A DNA stretch of 64,000 nucleotides from a phage, in the sequence record PZ212788.1. One strand, 5' to 3'. Positions 59,416 to 63,306 of this stretch are shown piece after piece. The position numbers and the translations under genes are program-made. The stretch's first letter is position 1. The number at the start of each line of letters is the position of its first letter. Below the pieces are notes generated by a model, which saw only the letters and a program-made list of their open reading frames with translations, was not told the origin of the DNA and did no database searches.

Positions 59416-59841
59416 ATGATCTATGAAATGCCAAAACTGATTCGTGACGATGCCCAAAACGCCCACACCTTTATCATGGGCAAGCGCATGGATATTATTT
59501 GTCATAAAGATTTCTGGGAAGGTAGTTACTTCACAGAATATTTTGGTAAACTGGATAATGGTCTGCTGATCCAGTTCTACACCGATGCGGAAAACAATAT
59601 CTGCTGGGAGTTCGAAACTGAAGATATCCATAAACTTTTCACCTTCCTAGGTATTAAGGTTGAGGCCAAGTTTGAAGAAGGCGAGTGCGACGATTGTGGA
59701 TTCTACGAGGTAACAGATTTCTATCTCCCAAGTGGTGAGAACCTTTACTATGAAAGCCACTTCGGCAACTCAAATATGCCACAAGGTTGGGATGAGTTTT
59801 TTGAAATTGCGGAAGAGGAGCTGACATACCGTGATTATTGA
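59416..59841 (+). CDS. hypothetical protein
   Basis: 141 aa ORF with GGAGAA RBS. Confidence 0.4.
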   Translation: MIYEMPKLIRDDAQNAHTFIMGKRMDIICHKDFWEGSYFTEYFGKLDNGLLIQFYTDAENNICWEFETEDIHKLFTFLGIKVEAKFEEGECDDCGFYEVTDFYLPSGENLYYESHFGNSNMPQGWDEFFEIAEEELTYRDY

Positions 59842-60289
59842 TACTGTAGCGGGAGATTTAATCTCCCTTTTTAAGAGCGGTGCTGGTCACCTGATCCACG
59901 GTTGTAACTGCTTTCATACAATGGGTGCAGGCATAGCGAAAGATATTGCCCGTGAGTTCCCTCAAGCACTGGCAGCCGACAAAGAGACTGCCTATGGTAA
60001 TCTGGACAAGCTGGGTATGTTTTCTTGTTGGGAGCATTTTGCCAAGAACAGGGTCGTATATGGAATCAACCTGTATACCCAGTTCTACCCAGGGCCCAAT
60101 GCTGAATACTTCTCAATAATGAAAGGTTTTGAGCGAGTCAACGAGGTATTCAAAGGTGTGTCATTGCCGTTCTACATTCCTAAAATTGGATGCGGTATTG
60201 GCGGTCTAAAGTGGGAACATGTAGAAGATGTAATTAATCTTGCAACCACAGATATTGATGTGGTTGTAGTAGAGTACAAAAAGTGTTGA
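59831..60289 (+). CDS. macro domain protein (ADP-ribose binding/processing)
   Basis: HLIHGCNCFHTMGAGIAKDIA matches the macro-domain NAAN..L..GGGVA.AI region; later KIGCGIGGLKWEHV matches the G.GI.G motif; GTG start. Confidence 0.6.
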   Translation: MIIDTVAGDLISLFKSGAGHLIHGCNCFHTMGAGIAKDIAREFPQALAADKETAYGNLDKLGMFSCWEHFAKNRVVYGINLYTQFYPGPNAEYFSIMKGFERVNEVFKGVSLPFYIPKIGCGIGGLKWEHVEDVINLATTDIDVVVVEYKKC

Positions 60290-61790: not shown

Positions 61791-62116
61791 CAGAGATCAT
61801 CATTTCAACTGCAGGGTATGTATTCCTGACAATCATTGCACTGGCTATTTTGGTGACAGTGTATGGGTTTGTTATCCTTCCTATCCTTGAGACATTTAGT
61901 TTGTGTCGGTGTTGGAGAAAAGCTTACGGTCCACAACCATGGAAGGACTGGCCCCACCTGGTGCGCTTAGCGTTCTCTTATGCTTACGATCACTCCAGTA
62001 GTGCATGCATAACCGGATACCACGCCCACAACTGGAGCTGGGAAGGGTTGAGGAAATGGAATGTTACAAAGACCATACCTCTGCGCATGTACAAACCTAA
62101 AAACAAAGACAACTGA
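61787..62116 (+). CDS. membrane protein
   Basis: N-terminal hydrophobic helix AGYVFLTIIALAILVTVYGFVILPIL; GAGGAGG RBS. Confidence 0.45.
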   Translation: MTEIIISTAGYVFLTIIALAILVTVYGFVILPILETFSLCRCWRKAYGPQPWKDWPHLVRLAFSYAYDHSSSACITGYHAHNWSWEGLRKWNVTKTIPLRMYKPKNKDN

Positions 62117-62640
62117 TACTTGAAAATTCCTGGCATATCAAGTATAAGGGGGATTTCTAAAATGGATTTCCTCCTTTTGATATTTCACCGGGCTGGATAT
62201 TTTAAAATTCTTAGAAAATCAGAAAATGGATCGAAAACTAAAATGGATTTTTCAGAGTAGGCGCGACAAGCTGAATAACTCATCCTATCGTTTGCACCAT
62301 ATTCCAGGCCACCATTATAGATTTCCCACACATGCTAACCTCTCTCTACTAGAACTTCCTCCACTTACCCTTGACCTTCTATGGTAACAATCTAACCGCT
62401 ATCTTGAAGTTGCGGTGCAGCTTTCCAGGTACTCGATCTACTTTTCATTTCAGGGCTTGGATTTTCTGAAAATTTTTCTCGATAAATTTCTCAGTACTCG
62501 ATCTGTTTTTCGTTTTCTGAATCGGATTTTCTGGAAATCGTTCCGGCTCTCAACCTGAAATTTTTGGGGACGAAATCGATTTTTCGTTTTCAGAAATGGA
62601 TTTTTAAAATTTCTATATGGGAATATTTTAGTGGATACTA
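62116..62640. repeat. repeat-dense non-coding region (iteron-like direct repeats and hairpin), candidate origin or terminus
   Basis: No ORF over about 600 bp; AAAATGGAT(T/C) at 62158, 62221, 62238, 62591; ACTCGATCT twice; GGATTTTCTG(A/G)AAAT twice; TTTCGTTTTC(T/A)GAA twice; inverted repeat ATACTTGA/TCAAGTAT at 62116-62145. Confidence 0.55.
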
Positions 62641-62665
62641 TTTTATAGTAAATTGTTACGGAGGG

Positions 62666-62683
62666 TAATTAGCGTGCTAATTA
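62666..62683. promoter_or_regulatory. perfect 8-2-8 palindrome TAATTAGC-GT-GCTAATTA (operator-like)
   Basis: Read directly from sequence; lies about 40 bp upstream of the first Fur-box-like site. Confidence 0.35.
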
Positions 62684-62720
62684 AATTTATTAAATGCGAG
62701 GAGTTCTCATTTAGAATTTT

Positions 62721-62735
62721 GAATGATAATCATTC
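62721..62735. promoter_or_regulatory. Fur-box-like palindrome GAATGATAATCATTC
   Basis: Perfect 7-1-7 palindrome; core AATGATAATCATT identical to the centre of the enterobacterial Fur box GATAATGATAATCATTATC. Confidence 0.5.
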
Positions 62736-62851
62736 TCGTTTGCAGAATAACGGGCAGGCCCGGTGATTGTCTCCCGGCCCCTGTTGCCCCGGCTTGTTAT
62801 TATAGTATCACACAGGACAAAGAAAGCAAGGATTTTTTGCATAAATTTTTA

Positions 62852-62866
62852 AATGATAATGATAAC
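62852..62866. promoter_or_regulatory. second Fur-box-like element AATGATAATGATAAC
   Basis: Tandem GATAAT/GATAAC hexamers, preceded by TTGCAT at 62837-62842; followed by TTCTC..TTT..TGCAG as after the first element. Confidence 0.4.
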
Positions 62867-63278
62867 CGTTCTCATTTTATGCAGCGCCCATCCCCAGTGG
62901 TTGTCTCCCCCGTCACCGGTGCCTGCCGTCCTTTCGATAGGTATATTGTGCCACCTGGCGGGGCCGCTGTCAACACCTTTCAAAAAAAAAAAATTATAAC
63001 CAGGTGCGCCCACTGCCAGGACCTGGCGGGGGAGAGTGAAAGCTTGCAAACCTGGTAGGGCTATGCTATAGGGTAGGCAACAACTGGAGAGGAGGTACAA
63101 AAATGAAAGGTAATATAATCCCCTGGAAAATGTAGCGACTAATGACGCTGAGGCTATCGCCATGGTTGAAAAGGCTATGGCGGGAGCGTTGGAACATAAA
63201 GAAGAGTACGAAAAAATGGTGGTTAACCTGGCGGGGGCGGCAGGTGGATTCTATCATAAAAATAATTTAAAATAGTCG

Positions 63279-63306
63279 TTGACAACAAGGTTAATCATGG
63301 TATTAT
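63279..63306 (+). promoter_or_regulatory. strong sigma70-like promoter (TTGACA-16-TGgTATTAT)
   Basis: Consensus -35, extended -10 TGg TATTAT 63298-63306; about 50 nt upstream of ATG 63357. Confidence 0.6.

Follow-up and report, generated by a model that had tools for sequence, protein, structure and literature searches.

The DNA analysed is a 64,000-nucleotide stretch of phage record PZ212788.1 (the window). The phage is a Vequintavirus. The window contains a non-coding gap of about 1 kb (62117-63103), which is bounded by an ORF ending at 62116 and by the next credible genes from about 63100. The genes around the gap are all small early genes on the + strand. The gap is left blank in the annotation of relatives or is covered by short spurious or doubtful ORFs, and the rV5 genome paper has neither a promoter nor a terminator at the position equivalent to the palindrome locus described here. 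A 111-aa ORF on the + strand and a 104-aa ORF on the - strand across the region, as well as peptides of 8-12 aa over the palindromes, were rejected as genes, since start and ribosome-binding site were not conserved. The proteins flanking the locus had no Pfam domain, or only NADAR, DUF7170 and Gp30.7, and no conserved DNA-binding gene was found adjacent to it. The flanking genes are all of unknown function and give no functional clue. The ORF at 59831-60289 is annotated in relatives as a macro-domain protein, and in phAPEC8 a NADAR-domain protein lies directly upstream of that phage's own copy of the module described below; both are ADP-ribose-related early genes near the locus.

The left part of the gap is an AT-rich stretch with imperfect direct repeats (Table 1). 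The repeat unit reads ..CTCGATCT..TTTTC..GGATTTT and was also written ..ACTCGATCT..TTTTC..GGATTTTCTG.. The GC content of the stretch is 0.24-0.45, with the minimum of 0.24-0.30 at 62550-62749. Other genera carry analogous repeat arrays in this slot, built of GGTCTCGATCG.. or ACTTGAGAGGTTTTTC.. units. In appearance, it resembles iterons or an unwinding element.

To the right of the repeats lie several palindromes. An earlier note on this DNA had described a perfect 7-1-7 palindrome, GAATGATAATCATTC, at 62721-62735, with a 13-bp core equal to the centre of the enterobacterial Fur consensus; this core, AATGATAATCATT, corresponds to positions 4-16 of the consensus GATAATGATAATCATTATC. It had also described a GATAAT/GATAAC tandem, found here at 62855-62866, and an 8-2-8 palindrome. 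All three were read directly from the sequence and confirmed in place. The proposal that the two units, termed A and B below, are related was upheld by two direct repeats that connect them in the repeat search: D4 (62709-62741 vs 62845-62877, 73% identity) and D8 (CCCGGTGATTGTCTCCC at 62759 vs CCCAGTGGTTGTCTCCC at 62893; 62759-62775 vs 62893-62909, 88%). The centres of units A and B are 136 bp apart.

Table 1. Coordinates of the features of the non-coding locus in the window.
Feature	Position	Strand	Description
AT-rich non-coding region	62117..62650	.	65-81-nt imperfect direct repeats (D1-D3)
8-2-8 palindrome	62666..62683	.	TAATTAGC GT GCTAATTA; about 57 bp left of main centre; not Fur-like
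Auxiliary palindrome	62693..62711	.	AATGCGAGGAGTTCTCATT; degenerate; 29 bp left of main; right half alone intact
Main Fur-type palindrome	62722..62740	.	AATGATAATCATTCTCGTT; centre 62731; includes GAATGATAATCATTC; same position in every genus
Leader block, unit A	62745..62774	-	+ strand GAATAACGGGCAGGCCCGGTGATTGTCTCC; - strand RNA GGAGACAAUCACC-N5-UGCCCGUUAUUC
Predicted promoter P(-)A	62802..62829	-	-35 TTGCTT (62829..62824), 16-nt spacer, TG-extended -10 TACTAT (62807..62802)
Unit B boxes	62852..62876	.	AATGATAATGATAACCGTT and AATGATAACCGTTCTCATT; two overlapping Fur-type boxes, centre 62867
Leader block, unit B	62887..62908	-	CCCATCCCCAGTGGTTGTCTCC; diverged copy
Predicted promoter P(-)B	62945..62973	-	TTGACA-17-CACAAT with TG, 10/12 by scan; conserved 17/17
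A12 tract	62982..62993	-	T-run on - strand, just upstream of P(-)B -35; UP-element-like

The frequency of these sequences in the window was investigated. With up to three mismatches, AATGAKAATNATTMTCATT was found three times in 64 kb, all at the locus (expected 0.18), and none of 100 shuffles reached three. The 7-1-7 Fur core TGATAATNATTATCA was found once with up to two mismatches, at 62724-62738. With up to one mismatch, GGTGNTTGTCTCC was found in the window only in the two units (0/100 shuffles).

The likeness to Fur boxes was examined by consensus and by matrix. Natural Fur boxes are written as the 19-bp GATAATGATAATCATTATC or the 7-1-7 TGATAATnATTATCA, with GATAATGAGAATCATTATT and TGTAATGATAACCATTCTC as examples (PMC10665472). 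Against the 19-bp form, 62719-62737 matched at 15/19 and 62855-62873 at 16/19, compared with 13-17/19 for eight natural boxes; the match to the 7-1-7 core was 12/14. A matrix was built from the eight natural iron boxes (PMC10665472). The top three scores in the window were 21.1, 18.3 and 17.5 bits, against 9.3-19.2 bits in leave-one-out scoring of the natural boxes, and the top six of 127,964 positions in the 64-kb window all fell within the two sites. The best match was GATAATGATAACCGTTCTC of unit B (16/19 to consensus, 21.1 bits), followed by the main palindrome in the 62719 register (18.3 bits) and the 62725 register (17.5 bits). Both variant half-sites, GAGAAT and ATTCTC, are present in natural boxes (PMC10665472). 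The family consensus of the phage sites, AATGAGAATCATTCTCATT, is identical to the Xanthomonas campestris Fur-box consensus AATGAgAATcATTctCATT, and the variable T/G position of the phage sites is a lower-case, less conserved position in the Xanthomonas and Bacillus Fur consensuses (PMC1790865). Phage 4MG carries a perfect enterobacterial TGATAATCATTATCA. The earlier description of the palindromes as Fur-box-like was thus borne out by every sequence test applied, with consensus matches and matrix scores equal to those of natural boxes. Judged by sequence, the window sites are equal to real Fur boxes. When the conserved blocks were compared by eye with the consensuses of sigma-54 (GG-N10-GC), IHF, ArgR, Zur and DnaA-box sites, none fit.

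The region matched 122 phage records with 80-99% identity, nearly all of them Vequintavirus (rV5-like E. coli myophages), and a sensitive search with the region matched 251 phage records. Outside the rV5-like clade, the match narrowed to 62686-62777 (62681-62838 in phAPEC8-like phages) with 71-88% identity. The core, 62686-62790, could be aligned between genera with 79-88% identity in most genera and 71% in phAPEC8. The relatives sharing it include phages of Klebsiella, Proteus (Mydo), Cronobacter (GAP31, CR8), Pectobacterium (CB7, POP18), Serratia, Salmonella and Enterobacter, and the E. coli phages 4MG, phAPEC8/ESCO13 and W70. When 4 kb of the window were compared locally with the syntenic loci of 11 of these phages, alignment was limited to the core, fragments of the AT-rich repeats (62469-62530) and a single 32-nt stretch (63257-63288). 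An alignment of 22 distinct sequences gave the nearly invariant block TTGAATGAkAATCATTCTCATTTGCAGAATrrCrGGCA-N5-GGTGwTTGTCTCC. Seventeen MG0656xx records titled 'Campylobacter phage', with C. jejuni given as host, are 93-98% identical to rV5-like coliphages across the region; their hosts are probably mislabelled, or they are contaminant records.

The conservation of the core across genera whose flanks no longer align was the strongest evidence that the motifs are more than chance, and by this measure the core is a functional non-coding element rather than a chance match. The element had no E. coli homologue, and its leader block was not found in any bacterial genome searched. A host origin was rejected on this absence, and on the searches made the module is phage-specific. 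A 14-mer scan of viral contigs lacked specificity and returned mostly random loci. Judged by its distribution, the element is core DNA of virulent myophages of two subfamilies, Vequintavirinae and Stephanstirmvirinae.

The palindromes form phased arrays. Among 18 representatives, 32 distinct palindromes were found, with 1-4 copies per genome. They occupy slots at relative positions -10, -39, -68 and -97, exactly 29 bp apart, with the outermost Certrevirus copy (-105/-106) as the only exception. The window has the main palindrome in slot -10 and the half-degenerate auxiliary one in slot -39, where rV5_ev156 has AATGAGAAAAGTTCTCATT and other genera have near-perfect palindromes. The 8-2-8 palindrome lies near slot -68 (centre 1.5 bp off), where relatives have a third Fur-type palindrome; it is conserved only inside the rV5-like clade, where two strains have a T>C change that breaks a pair. 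Outside the window, four further Fur-type palindromes, free of the leader block, form a second cluster in a 2.5-kb region marked 'non-coding' in the rV5 paper (L151 11229-11400 and 11740-11880; Murica about 103230-103880). It is accompanied by about eight 11-bp TGTTTACAT-like repeats, and the region is another candidate for an origin or control region. The palindromes are confined to these two non-coding loci of the genome.

The half-site of the family is AATGA[G/T]AA[T/C]. Among 64 half-sites, the variable position was G in 44 and T in 18, and the last was T in 41 and C in 16. The family consensus thus prefers GAGAAT where the E. coli consensus has T (GATAAT). The auxiliary palindromes show a relaxed inner AAT/ATT. 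At the main site, the most frequent form joins a left-hand GATAAT to a right-hand ATTCTC, which in RNA would give a U-C or G-A mismatch; some copies differ at two adjacent positions, and the changes are not compensatory. Such mixed, non-compensatory half-sites suggested recognition of DNA half-sites by a protein rather than an RNA stem.

Two sigma-70 promoters on the - strand were predicted in 17/17 representatives. In the -35 element TTG was always kept (TTGCAA, TTGATC, TTGACC, TTGCTT, TTGACA, TTGACG). The spacers were 16-18 nt long and free in sequence, and the -10 element was TAtaaT-like and often TG-extended. The distance from start to palindrome was 61-66 nt across representatives. In the window, the predicted start of P(-)A is at about 62795, with the palindrome centre 64 nt downstream, and that of P(-)B is at about 62938, with the palindrome centre 71 nt downstream. 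P(-)A is weak in the window (7/12 plus TG, below the listing of the promoter scan), and its support comes mainly from homology: its homologues score 8-10.5 in the 15 non-rV5-like of the 17 representatives, and at least 9 in all of these except phAPEC8. The A12 tract upstream of P(-)B varies in length among close strains (about 6-17). No terminator was found on either strand by scan of 62650-63000, and the palindromes lack the features of an intrinsic terminator, having stems with at most two G-C pairs and no U-run. A face-to-face promoter switch of the coliphage 186 pR/pL type was also considered, and only the - strand partner was conserved.

Two further observations concern these promoters in relatives. 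To the right of the core in relatives (L004-L007, L021, L025), a GTAAA-N5-GTAAA direct repeat, identical to the CpxR-box consensus, adjoins the P(-)A -35 on its upstream side in 7 of 11 representatives; it is absent from the window. In Mydovirus and Seunavirus, a small - strand DUF7170 gene lies upstream of P(-)B (L004 1826-2011, L005 1817-2008) and forms a short leftward transcription unit inside the rightward early region.

Read on the - strand, each unit has the order sigma-70 promoter, leader and 19-bp palindrome(s), the last 64-71 nt from the start. The leader (GGAGACAAnCAC..UGCC.. on the - strand RNA) begins about 20-30 nt past the predicted starts. The leader block of unit A is near-invariant across genera except for its N5 spacer. 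Unit B, a diverged duplicate of unit A, is restricted to rV5-like phages. At its place, about 140-230 nt right of the core, other genera have a GC-rich segment, some 85 nt long and very conserved (..CTACCGGCGATCCACCTTCCGACC..GTTAGCCCCGCCTTTTCGCCGTGGGGTGGCG).

The module also occurs elsewhere. Certrevirus has a second module with promoter, leader block and palindrome, which is co-directional with the flanking genes and lies upstream of a homologue of T4 Gp30.7. Outside the window, rV5-like phages carry the leader block a third time, in inverted orientation (Murica 106087; L151 13960-14230, Murica 105959-106229). This copy, GGCAGGCCTGGTGATTGTCTCC, is identical to 62753-62774 at 21 of 22 positions and is not accompanied by a palindrome. 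It is flanked on one side by a terminator-like hairpin and on the other by the published rV5 promoter P168, and lies just upstream of the latter. Since the leader occurs in one place without the palindrome and the palindromes in another without the leader, the two elements are separable and their functions may be unrelated. On this evidence of separate occurrence, palindrome and leader block are independent elements that co-occur at the locus.

The earlier note had also suggested small RNAs and a covariance analysis of the two units. The small-RNA idea was not supported, as searches for an Rfam match, a terminator and significant covariation all came back negative. Rfam gave no match with E<=1 at the loci of five relatives, and two chance-level matches elsewhere in the window (E 1 and 5.3) were to eukaryotic families. 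No credible tRNA was found in the window or in the five relatives. Folding z-scores were -0.8 to -2.0, and the alignment-wide consensus folding energy was only -3.2 and -1.4 kcal/mol. The 5'-terminal helix of the - strand RNA was 84.6% paired, against 33-55% with the partner slid, with no double-sided changes; shuffles gave equal values. The G-U asymmetry pointed mildly toward the - strand (19 unpaired cells vs 28 of 128). The GC-rich segment between P(-)B and P(-)A (L003-L008, L017, L020-L025) had no Rfam match, and a common secondary structure for it was rejected because its helices differ by clade and the alignment-wide fold is negligible; the segment may be an undescribed non-coding RNA. 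Like the RyhB-type small RNAs, the locus has a Fur-type box adjoining a short GC-rich, possibly structured transcript, which is here predicted. Unlike them, it has neither a sequence or covariance-model match nor a terminator, its box lies off the conserved promoter, and no promoter-to-terminator unit with conserved structure was found. Transcription here most likely runs on the opposite strand.

The best explanation of the locus, with a probability of about 45%, is a conserved phage module of promoter, leader and Fur-type operator, which would direct transcription leftward into AT-rich repeats and be gated by host Fur. The palindromes would serve as DNA operators, not RNA hairpins, and the dimeric protein of Fur specificity that binds them would most probably be host Fur-Fe2+. 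Transcription from P(-)B and P(-)A would run against the early genes into the AT-rich region (GC to 0.24) with its 65-81-nt repeats. Because the operators are phased (29 bp in the array, 136 bp between A and B) and sit within the transcribed leader, a dimer bound in the path would act as a roadblock or loop for leftward transcription. The A-B distance corresponds to about 13 helical turns, which makes looping around P(-)A geometrically possible. With host Fur as the ligand, read-through would depend on iron and rise when iron is scarce. The leftward transcripts could activate an origin in the manner of T7 or T4 oriF, or control the early genes upstream as antisense RNA.

Iron sensing would make sense for this phage, since its genome codes for iron-dependent ribonucleotide reductases. 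Titration of Fur by hundreds of replicating genomes is conceivable, by multicopy analogy with the plasmid Fur titration assay. The fuller proposal is that virulent Vequintavirinae and Stephanstirmvirinae have an iron switch, in which Fur gates leftward transcription, couples origin firing or antisense control to iron and may be titrated late. As a whole, this is distinctly unlikely. Several points tell against host Fur gating the module: the family consensus prefers G where E. coli has T, and the inner AAT/ATT is loose in the auxiliary sites; the sites lie off any conserved promoter, whereas Fur sites usually overlap one; the P(-)A match in the window is weak; leader and palindromes are separable; and a roadblock lifted by iron starvation offers no obvious benefit to the phage.

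The phage sites share the 9-1-9 / 7-1-7 inverted repeat of Gram-negative Fur boxes. However, Gram-negative Fur boxes overlap the -35/-10 of the promoter they repress, whereas the phage sites lie 61-71 nt downstream of the predicted - strand starts (about 60-100 nt downstream of conserved promoters), and these candidate sites stand in 29-bp-phased arrays in non-coding DNA of a virulent phage. Phage DNA under the host iron regulator, for which the present locus is a candidate, has precedents in temperate phages. A Fur box is also found at the stx1 promoter. Temperate lambdoid coliphages carry Fur boxes upstream of sitABCD (PMC6969025). Those boxes are at promoters of prophage cargo or virulence genes, whereas the present ones belong to a conserved core element of a virulent phage with no cargo gene. 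Use of a host nutrient-stress regulator by a virulent phage, as would be the case here, resembles the cyanophages that use PhoB. In cyanophages, pho boxes precede auxiliary metabolic genes; here the regulator is another one and the sites are in a non-coding module. No description of the element, nor of Fur boxes in Vequintavirinae, was found in the literature. The element kind itself is known; what appears to be new is candidate Fur-type sites in virulent phages, in core non-coding DNA, in phased arrays and downstream of promoters.

Phages like rV5, phAPEC8 and PVP-SE1 have a broad host range and are candidates for therapy and biocontrol. If host Fur occupies the operators, virulent infection would be wired to iron supply, which varies sharply in the gut, in infection and in inflammation. 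Apart from Fur, the locus carries a multi-copy module of promoter, leader and operator that is unannotated and is conserved across more than 250 sequenced genomes.

The palindromes could instead be operators of a phage-encoded dimeric regulator resembling Fur, with host iron irrelevant. The consensus favours GAGAAT over the E. coli GATAAT, and together with the relaxed inner AAT/ATT this leaves room for a phage protein of similar specificity. The strict 29-bp phasing is like that of cooperative phage repressor arrays, and the confinement of the palindromes to two non-coding loci and the phage-specific nature of the element fit the same idea. However, a near-invariant site amid unalignable flanks is easier to explain with a conserved host partner than with a co-evolving phage protein. 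The absence of an adjacent conserved DNA-binding gene and scores equal to those of natural Fur boxes also argue against a phage regulator, which is considered somewhat unlikely.

The 1-kb gap was also considered as an origin of the T7 or T4 oriF type, with the palindromes modulating its firing. This is compatible with gating by host Fur. The T7 primary origin has two tandem promoters and an AT-rich region, and T4 oriF and oriG are transcription-activated origins. In both, tandem promoters read into non-coding DNA that is AT-rich and bears repeats, as is predicted here. The architecture of a transcription-activated origin is present at the locus, where the promoters are predicted and the repeats uncharacterised. 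The two tandem leftward promoters would make a G-rich nascent RNA and then enter DNA with GC of 0.24-0.30, with the 65-81-nt repeats, and such arrays are kept in other genera. In addition, rV5 encodes a primase-helicase of the T7 type, and its origin could not be located in the rV5 paper. The resemblance is purely architectural, however, since here the promoters are predicted host sigma-70 promoters and operators are interposed. The GC skew has no inflection at the gap, the larger non-coding region with the 11-bp repeats is at least as good a candidate, and the module copies elsewhere merely precede genes. By its architecture the gap is a candidate origin, and an unlikely one.

The earlier note had implied rightward transcription units with the box over the promoter. 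Driven by a sigma-70 promoter, these would express either a short RNA under Fur repression, like RyhB, or the early genes downstream. The candidate promoter, TTGAAT (62720-62725)-18-CAGAAT (62743-62748), encloses the main palindrome, as is classic for Fur, and TTGAAT is conserved in most genera. However, it matches at 8/12 only and is absent from the output of the promoter scan. Its -11 base is A, T or G depending on genus, and the -35 is missing in phAPEC8 and W70. In the second Certrevirus module copy, the candidate is split by a 33-nt insertion that parts the palindrome from GAAT. Unit B lacks a counterpart of this promoter, and a terminator, an Rfam match and strong folding z-scores are all missing. 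The promoters that are conserved are on the - strand, so the rightward units were not supported and are very unlikely.

RNA hairpins in leftward (or rightward) transcripts, serving processing, termination or protein binding, are highly improbable: the palindromes would be transcribed if P(-)A and P(-)B are active, have A-rich and T-rich flanks of terminator-like outline and toggle G-C, G-A and U-A at one stem position of the main site, but a central mismatch in the commonest form and two in some copies, changes that are not compensatory, AU-rich stems and the lack of a U-tract and of a scanned terminator led to their rejection.

In the right part of the gap, ACCTGGCGGGG occurs twice, at 62953 and 63021, and ACCTGGTAGGG occurs at 63050. 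The interval 62990-63060 is the indel-richest part of the gap among rV5-like strains.
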